From: a virus
Strand: one strand, 5' to 3'
Length of the DNA: 33,356 nucleotides
IMG/VR virus record: IMGVR_UViG_2757320712_000001
Location: 1-33,356 of that record
Positions within the stretch are counted from its first letter, which is position 1, and each line of letters begins with the position of its first letter. Positions 7,419 to 33,356 of this stretch are shown one piece after another. The notes under the pieces are model-generated. The model was not told the DNA's origin, made no database searches, and worked only from the letters and a program-made list of their open reading frames with translations. The translations under genes and the position numbers were made by a program.

Positions 7419-7561
7419 ATTTTAAATTTCATGATCTGACAATTTAATAGTTTGATATTACTTTAGATATAGTATATTATATAGTATATAATTCTTTCAA
7501 TTATTATGATTTTTTAATTCATAAATTGTCAAGACTGATTCACCACATAAAGAAAAAGCAA

Positions 7562-7581
7562 TATACATAATATTATGTATA
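7562..7581. promoter_or_regulatory. 20-bp palindromic operator, copy 1
   Basis: TATACATAATATTATGTATA, a perfect palindrome identical to 19088-19107. Confidence 0.65.
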
Positions 7582-7621
7582 TAACTTTGAGTTTGAATTT
7601 TACATCAATTTCATCAACTTA

Positions 7622-11268: not shown

Positions 11269-11304
11269 AAAACAAGAATAAATAAACTCAAAGCAAATTT
11301 GCTA

Positions 11305-11324
11305 TATACATTATATTATGTATA
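11305..11324. promoter_or_regulatory. 20-bp operator, copy 3
   Basis: TATACATTATATTATGTATA. Confidence 0.6.
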
Positions 11325-11374
11325 TGCATTTGTTAATTGATATGTAAAGCATGAGCAAAAGATTTTTATAAATT

Positions 11375-14924: not shown

Positions 14925-17900
14925 ATGAGTTTCTTATTAAATCTTGGAGATTTAGGTACATTTTTTTCAGATGAGCTAACAGCATTAGAGAATTTTGCAA
15001 ATTTCTTAAGCTCTGAGTTTATAAATTTTTTTAGTGCAGTAGTTAATGATATTGAAAATGTTGTAAGTTTCATAGGTCAAGCAATTAGTGATATTCCAAC
15101 TTTTATGCAAAAAATTGCTAACAATTTCTTACAAATTCTACAAAACTTCGTACAAACTGCAATTCCAGTAGTTTCAGGATTTTTAACATTTCTTGAACAA
15201 CAAATTATAAATGTATTTCAAGATTTGTCTTCTTTAGCTTCTACATTTATTAATGATGCATATTCATTTTTACAAGGTGTTGTAAATGCATTTGCAAATT
15301 TAATAAGTACAATAGTTCAAGATTTTCTAAATAATTTTGGTCAAAATATGAAACATATTAGTTCTGCAATTTCTCAACTTACTCAATTCCTAACGCCGTT
15401 TATCGCTCCAGTTACTTTAGGAAAATTTTTGCCAGCAATAATAGATAAATTAGCTGAAATTTTGCCAGAAGTTGAAATAGATTTAGCGCCAGTTGGCCTA
15501 GGTGGAAAAATTCCAATTAACTTTGGAGAAATTGTAAAAGCTTTCGCAGAGACAACTGTTGATTTTCTTAATGAAGTTAGACAAGAAATTCAAACTACGC
15601 TTAAGGAGTTTATAAAAGAGCCATTTATTTCAGATTTTAAAATTACTGCGAGAGAAATATTTAATGAAATTGGACTTGGAGATTTACCATTTGCTGATCC
15701 ACCATTTAAACAAATTGCAAATTGGGTAGGTGCAAGATCTTTTAGTGAAATTAAAGATCATTTAAGAGAAACAATACTACTCACAGGATTTCCCGCATGG
15801 TTCACAGATGCATATCTAGAATCTCCAGTAGATGATTATATACCAAGAAATCCCTTATTTAGACCAGTAAATATAAGAGATGTAATTCTAGCTTCACAAT
15901 ATGGAATTTTAGACTTTAGTGCAGTTTCACAATATGCAGAAAATAATTTAATAACTCCAAAAACTGCAAAATTAATGTATAATAATCAAACTGCTAGACT
16001 TTTGCAAAGAGTAGTTGAAGAAGGAATTAGGCAATTTGTTGTAACTCCAGATAAAGCATATGAAGAAATTATAAATAATGTTAATTTAGCAGGTAAAGAT
16101 TTATATTTAAAAGTTTTCTCTCTCGAGTACAATTACTCTGTTCAGAGAATTGTTAGACAGTTCTTGAGATCACTTTTATCGAGAGCATTAACAAATTTTG
16201 GAAGGCCTTACATTGACTTAAAATTCCTAGAATCAACAGTTCAAAAATTATTTAAAGAATTAAATTATCCCGCTGAAGTTCAAAGTGTTTTCAACGTGAT
16301 GATTGAACAATCTCAAATAGTTTACACTAATCAACTTCTTCTAACACAATTAGAACAAATTACCAGATTAGGAATATTTGATGAAAAGAAAATAAAAGCA
16401 GAGTTAAAAGCTAATAACTTTAATGAGCAAATAGCACTTACAATTTTGAATTATGAACTTCAATATGTAAAATTGCAGTATATCTTAAAAGAGTTTCAGT
16501 TTAAACTACAAAATTACATTATTAGCACAAAAGACGCAGAACATCAATTAAAGAGTTTAGGATTTGATTCTTCCATAATTTCTGAAATCCTATTTGAATA
16601 TCAAACTGCACCATTAGTGAAATATCAAATTTCACAAATTGAAAGTCTAGCTAAAAAAGGATATTTATCAGTTGATGAAATTAAAAAACAATTACATGCA
16701 CTAGAAGTTATAAAAGAGTTTGAAGATATATTTATCAATTACACAAATCAAGAAATTCAAATATCATCAACTTTAAGTATTGCAAAAGAACAATTAAGAA
16801 ACTTTCTAATAGATTCAAAAGCTGTAGAAAATGAATTAAAAGTGTTGAAAATTAACGAATATCTGATAAACGAGATAATTCAAGAAGAATATAACATAAA
16901 TATTGCTAAATTACAATTATCATATATAGAAACTTTAGCTAAGAATTTATATTATGATCAAGCTCAATTATCTGGAGAATTATCTAAAATTTTGAAAGAT
17001 AAAACTGCAATAGATCTTTATACTCAAAAATTCTATTATGAATACATATATCCAAAAATTATAAATTATTATACACAATTAGCAAGACATGGAATAATTA
17101 CAGATATTTCAAAACTTCCAAAAGAAATTGTACAATATGAAATTAATCCAGAAATCCAAATTTTCCAACTTACAACAGAATTAGAATATATAAAGTCTTT
17201 ATTAAAAGATTTACAAATAACTCCAGATAAAGCAATTCAAGAATTAGAAAAATTAGGAATGCAAAAAGATTTAGCTAATTTAATTGTTCAAACTTACATT
17301 CCTACAATTTATAGTTTACATACAATTATTGGAAATATTGTAAATGGACAACTCTTCAAAGTGGGAAAAGTTCCCGTAAATCTAGGAAATGCAGAAAGTG
17401 AACTTAGAAAATTAGGAATTCCAGAAAATCAAATAAAAGTTATCTTGGATCAATATGCCTCCAGTTTTGGACTTGAAATTTGGAGAAAATTCTTGCCTTC
17501 ACTTTCTCATATTGAAACTGCAATAAAATATAACTTTCCAGATAAACAATTAATTGACTATTCATTTATACCTTCTGAATTTCTAAATCTTTATAGTAAT
17601 TTATATCAACATGAAATAATAGGACAATATGTACAATCCTTGAAATCTGAATATGTAGAACTATTAGTTTATGGAGTTCAAAATATCCAATTAGAGAATT
17701 TATTAAAACAATATGGAATAAATGAAGCATTATTAGGAGTTCTAAAATTATCAGCTCAAATTAGAAAAATATTAACGGCTTACCAAGAACTTTACATTAC
17801 ACCATCTAAAGCATTACAAATTTCGGAATATGTATCAAATCCAACACAATTATTACAAAAAGTATTTTCAGAATTTCAAGTTCCTAGCGATTTACAAAAT

Positions 17901-18101
17901 ACTTACTTGGAATATGCAAGAAATAGAAGACTTAGGACATACGTAAACGACATAATTTCAACAATTAATTTATTGTTTGAAAAGCAGAAAATTGATTTAA
18001 ATACAGCACAATCTTATTTACAACAATTAAAACAATACGGTTTAACTAATGAAGAAATTCAATTAATCTTACTAAATTGGCAATTACGTTCAAATTACTG
18101 A
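14925..18101 (+). CDS. Large virion / terminal fibre protein (SIRV2 ORF1070-like)
   Basis: 1058 aa, helical, amphipathic N-terminus, 48-aa internal repeats from aa 483. Confidence 0.85.
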   Translation: MSFLLNLGDLGTFFSDELTALENFANFLSSEFINFFSAVVNDIENVVSFIGQAISDIPTFMQKIANNFLQILQNFVQTAIPVVSGFLTFLEQQIINVFQDLSSLASTFINDAYSFLQGVVNAFANLISTIVQDFLNNFGQNMKHISSAISQLTQFLTPFIAPVTLGKFLPAIIDKLAEILPEVEIDLAPVGLGGKIPINFGEIVKAFAETTVDFLNEVRQEIQTTLKEFIKEPFISDFKITAREIFNEIGLGDLPFADPPFKQIANWVGARSFSEIKDHLRETILLTGFPAWFTDAYLESPVDDYIPRNPLFRPVNIRDVILASQYGILDFSAVSQYAENNLITPKTAKLMYNNQTARLLQRVVEEGIRQFVVTPDKAYEEIINNVNLAGKDLYLKVFSLEYNYSVQRIVRQFLRSLLSRALTNFGRPYIDLKFLESTVQKLFKELNYPAEVQSVFNVMIEQSQIVYTNQLLLTQLEQITRLGIFDEKKIKAELKANNFNEQIALTILNYELQYVKLQYILKEFQFKLQNYIISTKDAEHQLKSLGFDSSIISEILFEYQTAPLVKYQISQIESLAKKGYLSVDEIKKQLHALEVIKEFEDIFINYTNQEIQISSTLSIAKEQLRNFLIDSKAVENELKVLKINEYLINEIIQEEYNINIAKLQLSYIETLAKNLYYDQAQLSGELSKILKDKTAIDLYTQKFYYEYIYPKIINYYTQLARHGIITDISKLPKEIVQYEINPEIQIFQLTTELEYIKSLLKDLQITPDKAIQELEKLGMQKDLANLIVQTYIPTIYSLHTIIGNIVNGQLFKVGKVPVNLGNAESELRKLGIPENQIKVILDQYASSFGLEIWRKFLPSLSHIETAIKYNFPDKQLIDYSFIPSEFLNLYSNLYQHEIIGQYVQSLKSEYVELLVYGVQNIQLENLLKQYGINEALLGVLKLSAQIRKILTAYQELYITPSKALQISEYVSNPTQLLQKVFSEFQVPSDLQNTYLEYARNRRLRTYVNDIISTINLLFEKQKIDLNTAQSYLQQLKQYGLTNEEIQLILLNWQLRSNY

Positions 18102-18134
18102 ATTTGTAATTTGAAAATGTTTTTTTATCCTTCA

Positions 18135-18218
18135 AATTTACAATTCCAAACGTTCACTAGTTCAGCCTTAATTTAGAAAAAAAGAACTTCTAATTTGGCT
18201 TCACTGAGATCTAACTAT
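18135..18218 (-). ncRNA. Putative structured non-coding element, copy A
   Basis: Intergenic and homologous to 24017-24078 (3' block 30/35 identical). Core GTGA-AGCC...GGCT-GAAC. Confidence 0.4.
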
Positions 18219-18252
18219 TAAATAAATTTGTCATATTTTTTAACTTTTACAT

Positions 18253-19065
18253 ATGAGTGTAAACTTGTGTCATTATGAAGCTGAAAATATATCATTTAAA
18301 GATTTAGAAAATTTACAAGGTATGATATATTATGAAATTAAATACGACGGAACTCATATCTGTTTAAAATATGAAAATGAGTTAAAAATTAACACCAGGA
18401 AAGACATTCCACATGATAAAGGATTTCAAAATTTATTTTATCAAGTTCTAAATATTGATGAAATTATAAAATATATAAAACAAAATCCACAATATATTAT
18501 CCATGGAGAACTTATACATAAAAAGACATCAGCACTACAAATCCATACAAATGAAATTCCGAAATTTATCATATATGATGTCTTTGACAAAGAAGATAAT
18601 AGATATTTAAATCCAACTGAAGTTGATAGCGAAATTTATTATTGGTATCCTGAAATTTGTTTAGATTTAGATGATTTGATTGATATTATAACTAAAGAAA
18701 AACTTGAGGGTTTAGTAGCTAAAATTTACAATTCACAAACTATAAACTGTGAAGAAGGAAAGAATTTCAATTTATGCGTTTACAAATATAAGCCATATTT
18801 TTCAACTTTAGGAGTAATATTCAAACCAATTAAAAGAGAAATTGATATTAGACAATTATCATTTTTATTAGGAGAAATTGATAATGACTTAAAGAATAAT
18901 AAAGATGGTTGGTACGAAAATCATCAAGATCTTTACAAGTTCTTTATCGAAAATAAAGATAAAATAATACAGATACTACAAAACGAAAACTTTATATCAC
19001 AAATTGAGAAAGAAACACATTTAGACATTAAGAAAATAAAAGAATACATTATAAACTTCAAATGA
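18253..19065 (+). CDS. ATP-dependent ligase-family nucleotidyltransferase (Rnl2-like, RNA ligase-type architecture)
   Basis: Motif I EIKYDG (K30), Ia R49, III IHGE (E86), IIIa FIIYD, IV EGLVAK, V YKYK. Helical-looking C-terminus with no evident OB fold. Has its own TATA-GTC promoter. Confidence 0.85.
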   Translation: MSVNLCHYEAENISFKDLENLQGMIYYEIKYDGTHICLKYENELKINTRKDIPHDKGFQNLFYQVLNIDEIIKYIKQNPQYIIHGELIHKKTSALQIHTNEIPKFIIYDVFDKEDNRYLNPTEVDSEIYYWYPEICLDLDDLIDIITKEKLEGLVAKIYNSQTINCEEGKNFNLCVYKYKPYFSTLGVIFKPIKREIDIRQLSFLLGEIDNDLKNNKDGWYENHQDLYKFFIENKDKIIQILQNENFISQIEKETHLDIKKIKEYIINFK

Positions 19066-19087
19066 TGATAACAATTACAACTTGCTA

Positions 19088-19107
19088 TATACATAATATT
19101 ATGTATA
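19088..19107. promoter_or_regulatory. 20-bp palindromic operator, copy 5
   Basis: TATACATAATATTATGTATA; TTTATTTT-TGTC follows 11 nt downstream. Confidence 0.65.
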
Positions 19108-19149
19108 AGCTATGTGTGTTTATTTTTGTCAAGTTAATAATTTTTTCAT

Positions 19150-20886
19150 ATGAGCTTACCTTACAAAGTACGTTTTAAATTGCCATTAGAATTTCTGACT
19201 TTGCAAGACTGGAATAACTTTGTACAAAATTTACTATTTATAAATCAATATGGTCCTGCTAAACTTCTCCAGTATTATCAAAATGGCAATTTTCAGAATC
19301 TGGATGAAGTTATTGCAAAATATCTATATGTTTCAGCTTTGAAAGTTATGGGATATAATGTTCTTCATAATTTATCACAACCTCAGGCTTATACATTTGG
19401 TGAAGGAAATCAACAGCCATTTAAAAGCATGGCAAATAAATCTACTGTAAGCTTTCCATATTCAATACCATTTGAATTTATACAATTTTATCCGATATCT
19501 GAATTGTCTAACTATAAATTTCCAGTTTTTCCAGTTGAGAAATTACAAGTTCAATTATCACAAGTTAGTAAACAATTACAATTATTAATTCCTAGACTAG
19601 TTTCGAAAATTATAACTCCAAATCAAATTGCTGGAACACAATTCCAATTTTCTGGTACTGCAAATGTACAAACATTAATAGAAGACTATCTAGATTCTCA
19701 ATATTTGCAAACTTGGAGAGAAATTACAATTCAGAATTTAGGCAGTTCTGCAGTTCAGATAAACAATTCAATTTATTTAATGCCTAAAAATTGTTTAAAA
19801 ATAACTGCAAGTTCTCCATCAGAAATTCAACTAACTGCTCAAACTCCAACTTTACTAAGTGAAGAAATTGAATTTGTTGGAACTCCCATAACATTTTATA
19901 CAATTACAATAACAAATAGTCAATCAGACCCGACTCCTTCACCATTTCAACAATTACTAAATTTAAATTTATCATCTATATTATCAAGCTCATCACAACT
20001 TTTGAATTTACAATTTTGTTTAGACGTACAATGTCAAACTCCGCTTTACGCGTGGATTGAAAGTTACAATTCTAATTTATCAAGTGTTTATATTTGGATT
20101 AATTTGCCAACTTCAATTCCTGCTAATTCATCAATTACAATATATATGTTTGTTAGAAATTCAAATCAATACCCTTATACTGGGATAGCTCCGCAACTTA
20201 CTTCTACATACGCACAATATGATAATGGAGAAAATGTATTCTTAGATTACTGGAATTTTCAAGGTACATCAGTACCAAATGGAATAAATGTATATGAAAG
20301 TGACGGAACTGTAACATTCAATAATGGTGTAACAATAAAAGGCGGAACCTCAGCAATTGGTGGTGAAAACGGTATAGCAACTGTTAAATCATTTTCTCCT
20401 CTAATAATAATTGATTATTATGGAACACAATCAACTAGTCCGTCTGGAGAATCTTGGGCATGGAATATGGTGGGATTTAGTAATTATATATCCAGTAGTG
20501 ATCAACATCCGGCTGGCGGTGGGACATATACACTTATAGATTTTGAAGATGGATATAATGCAAAGCCAGAGTCAAGTCAAGGCGGAAGCGTTACAGATGG
20601 AACTCTTTCCACACCTTCTAACAATTTATTTCCAGCATCAGTTTGGACACATATCTATACTTCTTCAGCATATTATACTTATCAAAATTATCAAACTAGT
20701 ACTGGATATATAACTGGGGCATCAAACACCGCATCTCTACCTTTTGAAATAATGGTAGGAAATAATGAGGCAAGTTATGCCCCTGATGGAATGACAGTTT
20801 ATTGGTTAAGAGTTAGGGCTTATCCACCAAACGGTACAATGCCTTCAAATTCACAACCACAAAAGACAATAATTCTAATAGGCTGA
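19150..20886 (+). CDS. Virion protein with DUF2341-like / lectin-like C-terminal half (SIRV2 ORF564-like)
   Basis: ITITNSQS..TPSPFQQLL...LYAWIE...IWINLP..IPANSSITIY...YDNG..VF pattern; Ser/Thr/Gly-rich beta region; operator upstream. Confidence 0.75.
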   Translation: MSLPYKVRFKLPLEFLTLQDWNNFVQNLLFINQYGPAKLLQYYQNGNFQNLDEVIAKYLYVSALKVMGYNVLHNLSQPQAYTFGEGNQQPFKSMANKSTVSFPYSIPFEFIQFYPISELSNYKFPVFPVEKLQVQLSQVSKQLQLLIPRLVSKIITPNQIAGTQFQFSGTANVQTLIEDYLDSQYLQTWREITIQNLGSSAVQINNSIYLMPKNCLKITASSPSEIQLTAQTPTLLSEEIEFVGTPITFYTITITNSQSDPTPSPFQQLLNLNLSSILSSSSQLLNLQFCLDVQCQTPLYAWIESYNSNLSSVYIWINLPTSIPANSSITIYMFVRNSNQYPYTGIAPQLTSTYAQYDNGENVFLDYWNFQGTSVPNGINVYESDGTVTFNNGVTIKGGTSAIGGENGIATVKSFSPLIIIDYYGTQSTSPSGESWAWNMVGFSNYISSSDQHPAGGGTYTLIDFEDGYNAKPESSQGGSVTDGTLSTPSNNLFPASVWTHIYTSSAYYTYQNYQTSTGYITGASNTASLPFEIMVGNNEASYAPDGMTVYWLRVRAYPPNGTMPSNSQPQKTIILIG

Positions 20887-20893
20887 CATTAAA

Positions 20894-22552
20894 ATGTCTT
20901 CAAATTATTGTGTTAAATTAACGCAAGAAATTTTAGTATTGTCTATGACTACAGCAAATCCTATAAATTTTACATCTTTACAATTTTCATTATCTGTAAA
21001 TTCTTTGGTTATTTTCCTATTCTCGAAATATCCATTTAATTCTGGTTATGCAAATAATTTTTGTGTAAATCAAGACGAATTTGGTTTCGCTCAGGTTGGA
21101 CAAAGTTTCAACATAGATTTAACAAATTATCAAGGATATTATATGTTAATTTTAATTTATCCTGAAGGAATTAATTTAACTAGTGTTAGAAGTTGTGATA
21201 TTGTTCCAAATTTAACTATGACTTTTCAAAATACAACAATTTCGCCAATTGAAAGTGAAACAATAATTAATAATTTTGATGGACAATTTGAAACAGATTT
21301 TTGTGCATGTTATCAAGGTCAAAGTCATACAATAGGAACTACATGTTCAAATTCAAATTATGTTCCAGCAATTTCATTAAATAATCTAAATAACCAATTA
21401 GTAATTATAACTTGTCAAGCATTTTATCCTACAAGTAATACAACTGTAGAATTTGTAACGCCAACTACATGCTCTTATTTTGGTGCATATTTAACAGCAG
21501 AAATAACATTTATTGGAAATCAACAAGTCATAGATTTTCTAAATAGTAACAATATATCATATTCTATTTCTTCTTCTACTTCATGTCAAGCATTTTCAAG
21601 TATATCGCCATGCGGATTACCTTGCAGATCAGTTTACCAAATTTCACAATTATTATCTCCGCCGCTTAAATATTCATTGATTACCTCAAAATTGTGGAAT
21701 GAAATAGTTAATGATTTATATTTAGCTTACACCATATTTAAATATATTAATTATTTATCTCAATTTCCATATATACAAAATATATATCATGCAATTTCAG
21801 ATTTCTACAATTTCTATGAAAACTTTCAACCTTACGTATTTAAACCACTTATTCATGCTAGAAAAGGACTTCCTTTGACAGCTGATTATTTCAATTCTTT
21901 AATAGATACAATTATAGAATTAGCAAATTTTGCTAATATACAATTACGACAAGGAATTTCTCATGTCCAGCCTGACCAAATCGTAAAATCTTTACAATTC
22001 GATAATATAATATATAATGTAAATCAACTTCTAACTTTTAATTATAATCAATACTTTTTACTTAGTTGTTATGGGAATGAATTTAATAATTTATTGAGTT
22101 CAATAACTACATTCCTAAATGTCTTAATTTCGAATCCTATGATCAATATCACAATTCCAAATAATGTCTATATTAAAAACTTCCTAATTTATAATAATTT
22201 TAACACTATTACTATTTATGGGACAATTGCTAATCTTGTAATGAATTTAAATTCTGGAACTATACAATTACAAGACTTTTCATCTATAAATTTTCTCGTT
22301 TTACAAAATAATTCAGGAATAATAGAACTCAATAATGAATCCAATATACATAATTTATCAATTAATCAAAATCCCGGAACTATTAATATCAACAATAATT
22401 CAACTGTAAATACAATACAAATTCAAAATAATAGTGGAATAATTAATATCAATGATAATGCAATAATTGAAAATCTAATTTGTAGTCAAAATATTGGAAC
22501 TGTAAATATTTCATCGAATGCGATAGTTATAAATAATCAGTGCAGTTCATAG
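20894..22552 (+). CDS. Putative virion / adhesin protein with Cys-rich N-terminus and C-terminal beta-solenoid repeats
   Basis: Co-transcribed with the 578-aa gene. About five 20-aa Asn/Ile repeats at the C-terminus. Confidence 0.7.
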   Translation: MSSNYCVKLTQEILVLSMTTANPINFTSLQFSLSVNSLVIFLFSKYPFNSGYANNFCVNQDEFGFAQVGQSFNIDLTNYQGYYMLILIYPEGINLTSVRSCDIVPNLTMTFQNTTISPIESETIINNFDGQFETDFCACYQGQSHTIGTTCSNSNYVPAISLNNLNNQLVIITCQAFYPTSNTTVEFVTPTTCSYFGAYLTAEITFIGNQQVIDFLNSNNISYSISSSTSCQAFSSISPCGLPCRSVYQISQLLSPPLKYSLITSKLWNEIVNDLYLAYTIFKYINYLSQFPYIQNIYHAISDFYNFYENFQPYVFKPLIHARKGLPLTADYFNSLIDTIIELANFANIQLRQGISHVQPDQIVKSLQFDNIIYNVNQLLTFNYNQYFLLSCYGNEFNNLLSSITTFLNVLISNPMINITIPNNVYIKNFLIYNNFNTITIYGTIANLVMNLNSGTIQLQDFSSINFLVLQNNSGIIELNNESNIHNLSINQNPGTININNNSTVNTIQIQNNSGIININDNAIIENLICSQNIGTVNISSNAIVINNQCSS

Positions 22553-23029
22553 TTTACAAAATACACATTCTTTATTATCATCAGTTATAAAAGTTAGAAC
22601 TGTTCCGTATAATTTTCTCATTAATTCAAAACGATTTTCTGTCCAATCGTGAATAGCTATACAAAATTGTTTATACTTTTGCAATTGAGAAAAATCTAAC
22701 TTAGCCTCACATCCTTCACAATCCATTATAAAAATGTCAGTATTTGGATATTGATTTCCAGTCCATTCTCCATTTACATCAACTTTATCGCAAATATTAA
22801 AGTCTTTACAAACTTTTTCTTTAAATCTTTTATTTAACTCATCACTTTTTTCATAGCCAACAATTTTTTTAGCACCTTTTAACAAAAAATATAAAGCTGA
22901 ACTTCCACAATCATTACCAATAATTGTAATTGTCTTATTTTCAACTTGCAATTTTCCATAAGCTAGATCAAACTCGTGCCAATAACAGCATTCCAATTTA
23001 CAAAAATAATCTTTATAATTAAAACTCAT
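22547..23029 (-). CDS. SAM-dependent methyltransferase (FkbM-like)
   Basis: IIGNDCGSSALYFLLKGAKKIVGYE motif I region, and MDCEGCE. Confidence 0.85.
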   Translation of the reverse strand: MSFNYKDYFCKLECCYWHEFDLAYGKLQVENKTITIIGNDCGSSALYFLLKGAKKIVGYEKSDELNKRFKEKVCKDFNICDKVDVNGEWTGNQYPNTDIFIMDCEGCEAKLDFSQLQKYKQFCIAIHDWTENRFELMRKLYGTVLTFITDDNKECVFCKL

Positions 23030-23031
23030 GA

Positions 23032-23955
23032 TTAAATGACCTCAAATAGAGCATAAACTTTAGCTTTTCCAGTTGCCCAAGCATAAACATTACTAGGATT
23101 ATTTACATGAATTTCTATTGAATCATTTTGGAGAATTGGAAAGTTATTATATAAATTATTGCCAATATAAACGATATAATTACTGAGATTTTGGAGAATT
23201 ATTCTTACAGTTTCTATGGATGGGCCTGTATATAAAGGACTTGGAGTAGTAGAAACATCAAGTTGAAGGCCTTCTATAGTTGGCGGACTTAAGTACAAAC
23301 CAAGTTTATTAATTGTATTTGCCAAACCGACAGTTGCTAAATATACATATGTAAGTGTATAAGCTATAGAATTCGCAATAAAATATATTGCACTTTGTAA
23401 CGAAATTCCTAATTTTTTAGCTATTGAGTTTATAGTTTCGTAAAATGAAATATAGAAATTCTGTAAATCTTCTTTTATTATAGTCCTAGATTGTTCAATA
23501 TTTGAAATTAAATAATTTACGACACTATATATCGTTTCGTATAAAGCCTGAGTATCTTTGCTTAAAATTAAAGTAGCAGTTGGAACAGCAACTATAATTT
23601 TCTCGTAAATTTCCTGAGGAAGTTTAACAATTGAATAGTATAATTGTTCATTAGAGTATAAAATTGCATTTATTTGTTGATTTGCAGTAGCTATAAATCC
23701 AGCGATATATATCGGATCTAACTCTGTAAGTACTGGTTGTCCAGCTACATAAATTTCATTATAAAAAAATCCGGAACTAGCATTTATTGTTCCTGGAATT
23801 GTTAAATTTCCATTTTTCAAAATTGAAGTTACTGCATTTCCGCCTGTCTCATACAATTGAATTAAAAGCAAAGATGCGGTATTCCACATTCCAGATGTCA
23901 ATCTCTGGAAAGGCGAAGCCAACAAACTCGAAATTGAGGCATATGTAATGCTCAT
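23032..23955 (-). CDS. Probable virion protein, 307 aa, partly paralogous to 19150..20886
   Basis: Shares an LT...WN N-terminal motif and an IxxQNL...V.I.N...PS module with the 578-aa protein. Operator upstream. Confidence 0.75.
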   Translation of the reverse strand: MSITYASISSLLASPFQRLTSGMWNTASLLLIQLYETGGNAVTSILKNGNLTIPGTINASSGFFYNEIYVAGQPVLTELDPIYIAGFIATANQQINAILYSNEQLYYSIVKLPQEIYEKIIVAVPTATLILSKDTQALYETIYSVVNYLISNIEQSRTIIKEDLQNFYISFYETINSIAKKLGISLQSAIYFIANSIAYTLTYVYLATVGLANTINKLGLYLSPPTIEGLQLDVSTTPSPLYTGPSIETVRIILQNLSNYIVYIGNNLYNNFPILQNDSIEIHVNNPSNVYAWATGKAKVYALFEVI

Positions 23956-23997
23956 AGTTTAATATTTCTGAAATGACAAAAATAAGAACTCATAGCT

Positions 23998-24017
23998 TAT
24001 ATATCATATAATGTATA
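23998..24017. promoter_or_regulatory. 20-bp operator, copy 6 (2 mismatches)
   Basis: TATATATCATATAATGTATA; CTTATTTT-TGTC follows 11 nt downstream on the minus strand. Confidence 0.55.
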
Positions 24018-24078
24018 TAGCTTGATCTAATTGTGAGGCCGATAAGGCCGAACTAGTACAAGTTTGGAATTATAAATT
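24017..24078 (+). ncRNA. Putative structured non-coding element, copy B
   Basis: GTGA-GGCC-GATAA-GGCC-GAAC hairpin, which can be drawn as a kink-turn. Homologous to 18135-18218. Confidence 0.4.
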
Positions 24079-24182
24079 AGAAAAACATGCTTAAAATTTT
24101 AGTTTATGAATTCAGAATCAAGTACGCAGTTCTCATAACGAATTAACAATATTTTAATCTGTCATATCAGTGAAATTTAATT

Positions 24183-24788
24183 ATGAAAATCTTTACTTTT
24201 GCAGGATATACAAAACATTTAGAAGAATTAAATTTTGATTATGTAGTTGTAGATAAAACTTTTAATGATTTAACTCAAGAGTTAGAGCAAAAATTTAAAG
24301 ATAAAATTATTTGGAATGAGACAAATAGTGATATAAGATGGATCAGAATTGCTAAACAATTGTTAAAAATTCTAGATATAGCAAAAGAACAAGATGATGA
24401 TATATTTGCAATCATAGATAGTGATTTAATTGTTCCAAAAATTAGAGAAATTAATCCACAAAATAGAATTCTCACGCTTTGCTATTGGCTTTATTATGAT
24501 TGGACAAATGAAATAAGACCTTTCTGTTCAGGAACAAATTATATATTTAATAAAAAATATATTGCAATTTTTGAATCTGTAATTAATGTTTATCTAGAAA
24601 AAGAATATTATAAAGAATTTCCAATAGATATATTTCTACATGACCATATTCTACATTTAAATGTAGCTAAGTTAGGGACTATTCATTATGTTAAAACTCC
24701 TGAAGGAGAGAAAAAAATGGAATTTAAATTTGAAGATATTCCCCAAATTGTAAAGCATATTCCAGAATTTGTTTTAATATCTTGGTGA
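24183..24788 (+). CDS. GT-A-like glycosyltransferase
   Basis: VVVD...IIDSDL DxD motif; paired with a GT4 gene as in SIRV. Confidence 0.7.
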   Translation: MKIFTFAGYTKHLEELNFDYVVVDKTFNDLTQELEQKFKDKIIWNETNSDIRWIRIAKQLLKILDIAKEQDDDIFAIIDSDLIVPKIREINPQNRILTLCYWLYYDWTNEIRPFCSGTNYIFNKKYIAIFESVINVYLEKEYYKEFPIDIFLHDHILHLNVAKLGTIHYVKTPEGEKKMEFKFEDIPQIVKHIPEFVLISW

Positions 24789-24795
24789 GGACAAA

Positions 24796-25860
24796 TTGTC
24801 AAATATTATTTATTACGTTTATCCTCAACATCATGATGTTTCATTTAAATTTGTGGCTAAAGAACATATAAAAATGTTAAGAGAAAAATATACAGTTTAT
24901 GAAATTCCAGCTTTATCATTTTATCAATTTACTCCTTTCAGATACCCAATTTCAATTATTCACCCGTTTTTTTATTCTATGTGGCACTGGGGAAAAGTAG
25001 AGTTTTCATTTTTTGAACAATATAGATCTAAAGTTAGTCAAATTATTGGAGTTGAAGTAGCTGACAGTGATAGAATTTCAGAAAAATTTATAGATTATGC
25101 AAATAATTATGCAGATAGACTAATTGGAAATTCAGAATGGACTGTAAACGCTTTTAAAAATTCTGGACTAAAAATTCCAATTTATAAAGTTGTACATAAT
25201 TTTAATGAGAGATTATTGGCAAAAGATAATGAGTTAAAAATTGATGAACAAGTTAAATATATTGAAAAAGTTAAAAATGAGAAGAAAATTAAGCTAATTT
25301 TCATATCGCTATGGCATTCTGATTTTAGAAAAGGTGCCGATTTATTCCATGCAATAGCTAGACAACTTCAGAAAGAAAGAGATGATATTTATTTCCTAGT
25401 AAAAAGTGGAGGGCCTAGGACAGATTTCCAAGATTTGAGAATGTTTAATTTCACGGGAAATACAGATTTTGATAATATAGTTAAAATGTACAGAATTTCA
25501 GACTTATATCTTCTGACTTCCCGTGGTGGAAGTTTTGAATTAAATGGACTTGAGGCATTTATTTCAAAAATTCCGACAATCGCCACAAAAGGCGGTGCAT
25601 GGGAAGAATATTTTCCATCTCAATTGAAAGATTTGTTAGTTGATAGTTGTAGATTTCCAGACGTTTTGTGGAATAATCCAATTCATATTGGTCAAGGAGT
25701 AGAAATGTGCATGGATAAAGCAGTAGAAAAAATATTAGAAGTTCTGGACAATTTAGACAATTACAAAGCAAAAATTGAAGAAAATTATAATTTTTGGTTA
25801 GAAAATTTCAGCTATAACGCCGTAAAAAAGCAACTTTTAAATGCAATTGAAAAATCTTAA
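24796..25860 (+). CDS. GT-B (GT4-like) glycosyltransferase
   Basis: FRKGAD and SRGGSFELNGLEAF signatures. TTG start behind SD GGTGAGG overlapping the upstream stop. Confidence 0.9.
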   Translation: MSNIIYYVYPQHHDVSFKFVAKEHIKMLREKYTVYEIPALSFYQFTPFRYPISIIHPFFYSMWHWGKVEFSFFEQYRSKVSQIIGVEVADSDRISEKFIDYANNYADRLIGNSEWTVNAFKNSGLKIPIYKVVHNFNERLLAKDNELKIDEQVKYIEKVKNEKKIKLIFISLWHSDFRKGADLFHAIARQLQKERDDIYFLVKSGGPRTDFQDLRMFNFTGNTDFDNIVKMYRISDLYLLTSRGGSFELNGLEAFISKIPTIATKGGAWEEYFPSQLKDLLVDSCRFPDVLWNNPIHIGQGVEMCMDKAVEKILEVLDNLDNYKAKIEENYNFWLENFSYNAVKKQLLNAIEKS

Positions 25861-32968: not shown

Positions 32969-32974
32969 TCTTTT

Positions 32975-33356
32975 CTCCTCATTATATCATTTGTAAAAAC
33001 ACATATATAAATCTTTCTCTCTCTTTTTACATCTCTATCTTTTTAACTCTCTCCATCAACTCTCTACAAAGAGAACGTATGAATTCTGTCTCTCCAATTT
33101 ATTTCAATACTGCAGAGATAAATTGTTTCCTAACGGTGAAATCGCGTAAAAATATCTATTTCGGGTTAAAACATAATTAATAATTTATAACTACTATATT
33201 GCATAACTATATAACTATTATATTGTATAACTATATAATTATCTAATTCTCCAATTTGCTAAATCTCCTTACAATTTTTACCACAAGAAACTTAGATAAA
33301 TTCAAACTGTATACAGCATCTTCTATTGAATTGAAAGAAAAAAAGAAACTATATTT
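32975..33356. repeat. Right inverted terminal repeat (inner 382 bp; truncated by the window end)
   Basis: Reverse complement of 1136-1517. The shadow ORFs 1312..1569(-) and 32938..33180(+) share their C-terminal sequence. Confidence 0.92.
33314..33337 (+). other. Solitary CRISPR-repeat-like sequence (right ITR copy)
   Basis: ITR mirror of 1155-1178. Confidence 0.4.

Follow-up and report, generated by a model that had tools for sequence, protein, structure and literature searches.

A lineage-restricted family of non-coding two-hairpin cassettes at gene junctions in rudiviruses

A short intergenic sequence carried twice by a Sulfolobus rudivirus genome belongs to a real, undescribed and lineage-restricted family of non-coding cassettes, each made of two hairpins and located at gene junctions. 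The hairpins covary, the copies are present or absent between relatives, and sequence is exchanged between sites. With somewhat less than even confidence, we favor the reading that the cassette is a protein-assisted spacer of operons that acts at the RNA level and is spread by recombination, in the manner of the PeSL motifs of T4-type phages. The annotation of these genomes is also corrected, since none of the matching GenBank records annotates the element.

Source genome

The window analyzed here, the whole stretch of 33,356 nt, is the near-complete genome of a Yellowstone Sulfolobus rudivirus of the genus Usarudivirus. Its nearest public relative is Sulfolobus islandicus rod-shaped virus 4 (SIRV4; 92% identity over window positions 17001-25000), followed by other Yellowstone isolates of Usarudivirus; identity to the Icelandic SIRV1, 2 and 3 is about 75%. 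Positions 1-538 form a 97% palindrome, with arms 1-269 and 270-538, apparently because the assembly ran on past the covalently closed end of the genome. A perfect inverted terminal repeat is formed by two arms of 386 nt, 1136-1521 and 32971-33356. Relative to SIRV4, identity is 100% over approximately 23900-24130 and 80-88% beyond; relative to SIRV5, it is 99% over approximately 23900-24500 but 40-55% upstream of 23600. Judged from these alignments, the window genome is a recombination mosaic.

Two related copies in the window

An earlier note on this DNA had described two similar hairpin-forming copies, A and B, one of them beside a ligase gene. Their similarity was confirmed. Comparison by BLAST within the window yielded 85% identity over 40 nt (E = 3e-7), far beyond chance, and a repeat finder returned a 73-nt inverted pair, 18098-18170 and 24043-24115, with one arm in each copy. 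A covariance model built from other copies gave 80.3 bits for copy A and 44.9 bits for copy B. The runner-up in the window scored 15 bits and, by this model, the window holds two copies of the element and no more. Using nhmmer, copy A scored 71.7 bits over profile positions 1-108.

Copy A occupies 18083..18204 on the minus strand and represents the full-length 'long form' of the element. This extent is based on the covariance model, nhmmer, a gap longer than in relatives, and orthologues. Hairpin 1 (18160..18204, minus strand) was assigned from the fold and from family covariation, and comprises GUGA, stem AGCC, inner stem UUAGAA/UUCUAA, stem GGCU and GAAC. All 12 of its 12 modelled pairs are Watson-Crick, and the minimum-energy fold has the same shape. 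Hairpin 2 (18086..18153, minus strand) is long and imperfect, with an A-rich apical loop, as indicated by the single-sequence fold, RNAalifold on 20 long-form copies and family covariation. Its 3' arm overlaps the final six codons of a 1058-aa minor-capsid gene encoded on the opposite strand (18084..18101, plus strand; L R S N Y stop, as read from the sequence), an overlap that recurs in L050 and L084. A decaying duplicate of these six codons, still reading L R S N Y stop, lies at 18204..18221 (plus strand) and was recognized by comparison with the single copy in SIRV4. At site A, the end of the 1058-aa gene is thus found on each side of the element, in use on one side and decaying on the other, and three other lineages share this arrangement. 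The six-codon remnant is increasingly degraded in L050, L084 and L075.

Copy B occupies 24033..24128 on the plus strand, as delimited by an exact 96-nt insertion relative to the isolate V60 and by the covariance model. Its hairpin 1 (24033..24053, plus strand; alignments and fold) is truncated to GUGA, GGCC, a 5-nt loop, GGCC and GAAC. The absence of the inner TTAGAA/TTCTAA stem from this copy, pointed out in the earlier note, corresponds to a 24-nt apical deletion. Hairpin 2 was placed at 24056..24125 (plus strand) by folding the whole copy.

The boundaries originally proposed for the two copies stood in part. The blocks reported as shared are indeed related, but the element is longer, and the 35-nt '3' block' is just the 5' arm of hairpin 2. 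The motif ATAG.TT.GATCT, taken at first as the start of the element, is flank instead: V60, whose site B is empty, has it there too, and at site A it is the decayed second copy of the 1058-aa gene's final codons. We considered the shared 5' flank of A and B as a target site and rejected it, the similarity being pre-existing flank at both places.

A separate palindromic motif of approximately 20-27 bp, with core ATATACATnATATTATGTATA, occurs between genes at 7553-7584, 11296-11327, 19079-19110 and 23979-24033. One of these ATATACATnATATTATGTATA-core palindromes stops 8 nt upstream of copy B; it is distinct from the element because V60, in which site B is empty, also has it.

Size and distribution of the family

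The first nine copies aligned as one element of approximately 110-125 nt starting with GTGA; the length of the cassette in the family is 97-125 nt. Further copies were added by pattern scans, from IMG/VR and from 43 hot-spring metagenome contigs. A profile search gave 85 hits, corresponding to 56 distinct copies, with a maximum of five on one 5.7-kb contig. The description of a two-copy element thus holds for the window genome alone and not for the family. In the Usarudivirus genomes and hot-spring rudiviral contigs gathered, the 56 distinct copies occupy at least 15 intergenic sites, which adjoin many different genes along the genome. The carrier contigs were considered rudiviral because nearly all of them encode homologues of window proteins.

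The covariance model, a search tool that had been suggested as a check, gave background scores only in five rudiviruses of other genera: SIRV2, SIRV3, SBRV1, SRV and ARV2 (best score, 18.9 bits). Scanning 185,579 representative prokaryote genomes with the family pattern gave one chance, degenerate match and no others. When one consensus-like copy was used as a blastn query, the plasmid collection contained no match, and the virus collection returned Usarudivirus records only, always without an annotated feature. Rfam cmscan of the whole window gave no match to either copy at the gathering score or at E values up to 10, and a tRNA/tmRNA search found none. The element is not mentioned in the papers describing the Yellowstone SIRVs, and a full-text literature search found none.

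Hairpin structure and covariation

Hairpin 1 (nt 1-45) begins with G-U and a putative tandem G.A/A.G, followed by a covarying stem of 4 bp, an internal loop (AAA/AAUUAA) and a second covarying stem of 6 bp. It follows the pattern GUGA-RGYC...GRCY-GAAC, in which GUGA and GAAC are invariant. Hairpin 2, of up to ~70 nt, is closed by GUGC/GCAC and contains the same AAUUAAG motif; the 3' end of the cassette is usually a GGUGA resembling a Shine-Dalgarno (SD) sequence. The two hairpins are alike in their 5' arm (AAAUUUGRAAUU type) and in their 3' arm (UUCAGAAUUAAG type). This resemblance suggests an old tandem duplication.

The proposal of variable loops on helices maintained by compensatory change held for both hairpins across 52 aligned copies. 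In hairpin 1, 92.0% of cells were paired versus 83.2% in shuffled alignments, and there were 72 double-sided changes versus 23 in shuffles, with none of 500 shuffles reaching 72. Sliding the partner strand by 1-3 columns reduced pairing to ≤50%. In hairpin 2, the corresponding values were 88.4% versus 78.5% for paired cells and 96 versus 34 for double-sided changes (0 of 500 shuffles), and the helices share alignment columns in the long, 12-nt-shorter and 24-nt-shorter forms. By the shuffle and slide controls, both hairpins display the helix-keeping compensatory changes of a structured RNA or single-stranded DNA (ssDNA) in the generic sense. The swap noticed between the two window copies, AGCC/GGCT in A and GGCC/GGCC in B, concerns the first stem pair and is one case of this family-wide covariation: the pair is GC in 31 copies, AU in 17, GU in 4 and broken in none. 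The 12- and 24-nt indels take out the tips of hairpins.

Folding is favored on one strand, that starting with GTGA. On this strand, G.U pairs outnumber A.C pairs by 44:13 in hairpin 1 and by 115:46 in both hairpins together. The ratio was 20:7 in copies antisense to both neighboring genes and 34:15 in sense copies; the G.U excess is thus independent of the direction of the neighboring genes. For copy B, the predicted fold of the GTGA strand has an energy of -24.6 kcal/mol (z = -4.5), versus -13.2 kcal/mol (z = -1.3) for the complement. For copy A, both strands have the same z-score, about -2.0.

These patterns bear on whether the element is a small protein gene, decayed or still active, that starts at the GTG, which we consider very improbable. 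Some copies are open for 31-58 codons (43 in V3, 58 in SIRV9/10 and 43 in V60), tblastn connects the open-frame copies of V3, SIRV9/10 and V60, and the indels, of 12, 24 and 45 nt, are all multiples of three. Column entropy by codon position was nevertheless 0.77/0.74/0.71, with no third-position excess in any frame. One 'codon', NAG, has all four first bases at near-equal frequency (TAG, AAG, CAG and GAG), TAG being the consensus triplet, and stops occur in many otherwise intact copies, the two window copies containing 3 and 2 in-frame stops. As for the indels, those of 12 bp are a general trait of rudiviruses (PMC4390879) and here remove hairpin tips. Based on the absence of codon periodicity, the frequent stops and the free NAG position, the protein-coding reading was rejected. 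The remnant of a protein gene that the earlier note had allowed for is thereby discounted, and the non-coding status of the element is borne out.

The suggestion that copy B folds as an L7Ae-type kink-turn fared less well. The element does have in common with kink-turns and box C/D RNAs a candidate 5'-GA/3'-AG tandem flanked by helices, and the GUGA and CUGA strands of copy A resemble parts of box C and box D. Nucleotides G3, A4, G42 and A43 are correctly placed for tandem G.A pairs and are almost invariant; invariant bases, however, cannot show pairing. Beyond them, the helix is extended by G1-C45 and U2-A44 in 49 of 52 copies. On both strands the 4-bp stem abuts the tandem G.A, and since the 3-nt bulge is missing there, the structure is not a canonical kink-turn. 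The element also lacks a C'/D' pair, a guide region and an Rfam C/D match. Kink-turn and box C/D identities were accordingly rejected, for want of the bulge and of an Rfam match.

Relation to the ligase gene

The 270-aa product of the gene next to copy A (window 18253-19065) matches Pfam RNA_ligase (PF09414) with 37.8 bits. This neighbor had prompted the idea of viral RNAs circularized by the viral ligase. In its broader form, this idea takes the element as a stand-alone small viral RNA that has its own promoter, is bound at its tandem G.A motif by L7Ae or another host RNA-binding protein, and is possibly joined or circularized by the ligase. The invariance of GUGA and GAAC and a strand bias that is independent of orientation are in keeping with such an RNA, as is the parallel absence of ligase gene and element from SIRV2, SIRV3, SBRV1, SRV and ARV2, in which the ligase gene was not detected.

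The ligase gene is present in V60, SIRV9 and SIRV8 and absent from V3 and V65 (OM401712.1, OM401714.1). An obligatory link fails because V3 and V65 keep intact elements, three and two, respectively, without a ligase gene, while SIRV8 has the ligase gene and decayed remnants only. Moreover, the element occurs at many sites besides site A, and SIRV4, SIRV5, SIRV8 and V60, all of which have the ligase gene, carry no copy at site A. Other observations weigh against a stand-alone RNA. There is no canonical kink-turn and no box C/D or other Rfam match at E values up to 10. No conserved promoter lies upstream of the element, since the flanks differ at every site, and many copies sit tightly between a stop codon and an SD sequence. 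Together, these make a free-standing small RNA improbable.

Position between genes and expression signals

In seven copies, the stop codon of the upstream gene is the element's own TGA (UGA; nt 2-4). At the other end, 12 of the 25 copies examined have a real gene or long ORF starting 6-11 nt past their 3' GGTGA; such genes include a methyltransferase gene, a glycosyltransferase gene, a 552-aa gene and a zinc-finger ORF. With respect to their neighbors, 18 copies are oriented same/same and nine opposite/opposite. An AT-rich box followed by GTC/GTCAT is present in the tip of hairpin 2 in nine of 52 copies, all nine preceding genes or long open frames, namely those of a methyltransferase, a glycosyltransferase and two small ORFs, and hairpin 1 contains a T-run of ≥5 in 14 of 45 copies.

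These signals, together with the GGTGA at the 3' end, raise the alternative that the element is a composite signal at the DNA level, terminator plus promoter plus SD, that would be PeSL-like in the strict sense, its inverted repeats being incidental or bound by a regulator. The promoter-like box and the T-runs are each found in a minority of copies, so a terminator-promoter role is not general. Compensatory changes and a one-strand G.U excess would be unexpected for a double-stranded protein-binding site, and copy B lies upstream of a separate, intact promoter of the 201-aa gene. A role of this kind is accordingly doubtful, and we rank it well below the RNA-level spacer.

Presence, absence and movement of copies

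Aligned with close relatives, copies A and B are insertions. Copy A is missing from SIRV4, SIRV5, SIRV8 and V60, and copy B from V60. At site A, the distance from the end of the 1058-aa gene to the promoter of the ligase gene is 31 nt in SIRV4 and V60 versus 151 nt in the window, and orthologues of copy A occupy the same site in L050, L084 and L075. At site B, V60 lacks exactly 24033-24128, and SIRV4, 5, 6 and 7 keep copy B at 99% identity. Special conservation of copy B was considered and rejected, as this identity extends over longer recombination blocks (230-600 nt). With SIRV4, the stretch of 100% identity stops at the 3' edge of copy B. The element accounts for several length differences among the Yellowstone SIRV genomes. 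Since copies A and B are insertions, the small mobile element that had been mentioned as a fall-back comes closest to these comparisons.

The insertion sites have little in common. The 12 nt upstream of the element have no consensus across 56 copies. The flanking duplication is 0-1 nt at site B and ~18 nt at site A, and sites C and D have an ambiguous junction of the GTGA type. Where the latter two sites are empty, they carry ordinary stop/SD/start junctions, GGTGAGGNCAAA..ATG, which resemble both ends of the element. These ends, 5' GTGARGYC and 3' ..AAGCACGTR(GTGA), are not complementary to each other, so there are no terminal inverted repeats. Sequence similar to copy A occurs at other positions in V3, V60 and V65. 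A copy in L069, upstream of a glycosyltransferase gene, has a 3' arm of the site A type; sequence therefore passes between sites.

Small mobile elements of known kinds provide a standard of comparison. Sulfolobus MITEs and IS200/IS605 derivatives are small, non-coding, multi-copy and strain-variable; IS200/IS605 derivatives depend on hairpins of one strand, and IS200/IS605-type elements require a fixed target tetranucleotide. The cassette resembles them in being small, non-coding, multi-copy, and present or absent between strains. In contrast to them, it has no terminal inverted repeats, no fixed target-site duplication and no conserved target. No parent element with a transposase was found by the pattern scan of prokaryote genomes or by the plasmid and virus searches with one copy, the matches in viruses being short unannotated copies only. 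An IS-derived MITE or an IS200/IS605-type element was rejected, there being no terminal inverted repeats, fixed duplication or target consensus.

The main rival to the RNA-level spacer is nonetheless a selfish, non-autonomous mobile element that moves as ssDNA and has no function where it lands. While the viral DNA replicates by strand displacement, the element would require its strand-specific hairpins in order to be copied or inserted, for instance through the viral HUH Rep, the Holliday-junction resolvase or template switching. We regard this as credible but rather unlikely. It would be consistent with the presence or absence of copies between close relatives, with the clean insertion without duplication at site B, with the occurrence of both orientations and a strand bias that ignores neighboring genes, and with the tandem or abutting arrangement of some copies and the passage of sequence between sites. 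Rudiviruses also have abundant ssDNA intermediates and a nicking Rep (PMC5062984). Opposing this alternative are the lack of a conserved 5' target sequence, of terminal inverted repeats and of a fixed target tetranucleotide of the IS200/IS605 type, and flanking duplications that range from 0 to ~18 nt, unlike those of any one transposase. In addition, prokaryote genomes gave only the one chance match to the pattern, and plasmid records gave none to the single copy searched.

A possible role as an RNA-level spacer

Under the explanation that we prefer, the cassette would act single-stranded, most likely as RNA within viral transcripts, where it would form an intercistronic spacer between an upstream stop codon and a downstream SD and start. 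A protein would recognize the hairpins and the invariant unpaired bases. Such a protein is invoked because, on their own, the A/U-rich stems have only marginal predicted stability at 75-80 °C. The calculated stability of naked RNA at these temperatures is about 0 to -1.6 kcal/mol; any fold in vivo thus probably needs a protein or other stabilizer. Recombination at SD-like junctions similar to the two ends of the cassette would spread it and, as a by-product, the cassette may offer portable homology for the shuffling of gene cassettes, as PeSL motifs do in T4-type phages.

Some observations fit less readily. As copies occur in both orientations and the G.U excess is equal in antisense copies, a role purely in sense mRNA cannot explain every copy, copy A included. 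The strand bias could have been inherited from source copies rather than selected in place. The SD-plus-gene arrangement is found in only about half of the copies examined, and spread of the spacer by recombination does not readily account for the target duplication of 18 nt at site A.

Among known systems, the promoter-early stem-loop (PeSL) of T4-type phages (PMC2839356, PMC4122927) is similar in several respects. Both PeSL and the element are short, conserved, intergenic stem-loop motifs repeated at gene boundaries. Both are concentrated beside variable genes, and the element may also resemble PeSL in being tied to indels and recombination break points and in carrying expression signals for the next gene. 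The element differs in having no sequence relation to PeSL, an archaeal host, both orientations, two covarying hairpins and a one-strand G.U bias. Moreover, its promoter- and terminator-like signals are found in a minority of copies, and recombination through it is deduced from few cases. In one such case, the block of identity with SIRV4 stops at the edge of copy B; in another, the related contigs L060 and L062 differ by a gene adjoining an element.

Bacterial REP/BIME sequences, which are associated with RAYT transposases, are dispersed, extragenic, imperfect palindromes, often located between cistrons, and REPs can stabilize upstream mRNA. The element likewise consists of dispersed extragenic imperfect palindromes kept as hairpins. 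It differs from REP/BIME in residing in a virus genome and not being detected in host genomes, in having no GTAG-type head and no associated RAYT gene, and in its much longer unit with two hairpins.

To our knowledge, descriptions of structured non-coding elements in archaeal viruses are few. That the family constitutes a new class of virus-resident structured nucleic acid, functioning through its GTGA strand either as an RNA module or as the first non-autonomous mobile element of an archaeal virus, seems to us unlikely, though far from negligible. If true, it would represent a protein-bound RNA module by which rudiviruses control or protect transcripts at 80 °C or, alternatively, the first such mobile element inside an archaeal virus, moving via the ssDNA replication intermediates of the virus. 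The family offers 56 natural variants, two covarying hairpins, invariant unpaired motifs and presence/absence alleles, and the cultured carriers include V3, V60, V65 and numbered SIRV isolates. With these carriers, variants and alleles, questions about A/U-rich RNA and DNA structures at 80 °C, the punctuation of rudiviral operons and the swapping of small genes in mosaic genomes are directly testable.

Variable regions that contain the element

Four of the hot-spring metagenome contigs, L060, L062, L076 and L086, contain 3-5 copies per 4-7 kb, in both orientations, among small variable genes that include C2H2 zinc-finger ORFs and a repeated 56-aa ORF. At the place of an element fragment in L060, L062 has an extra 78-aa ORF.

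In V3, V60 and V65, the methyltransferase and acetyltransferase genes are separated by ~300 additional nt, absent from the window and SIRV5. This stretch comprises a copy of the element and ~190 nt of other sequence (L003 24590-24900, L004 24150-24460 and L005 22773-23084). In SIRV9 (L057 1501-1677) and SIRV10 (L058), the element lies between two large late genes and has a 45-nt insertion inside hairpin 1. This insertion partly repeats the adjacent sequence, and the GTG frame is open for 58 codons.
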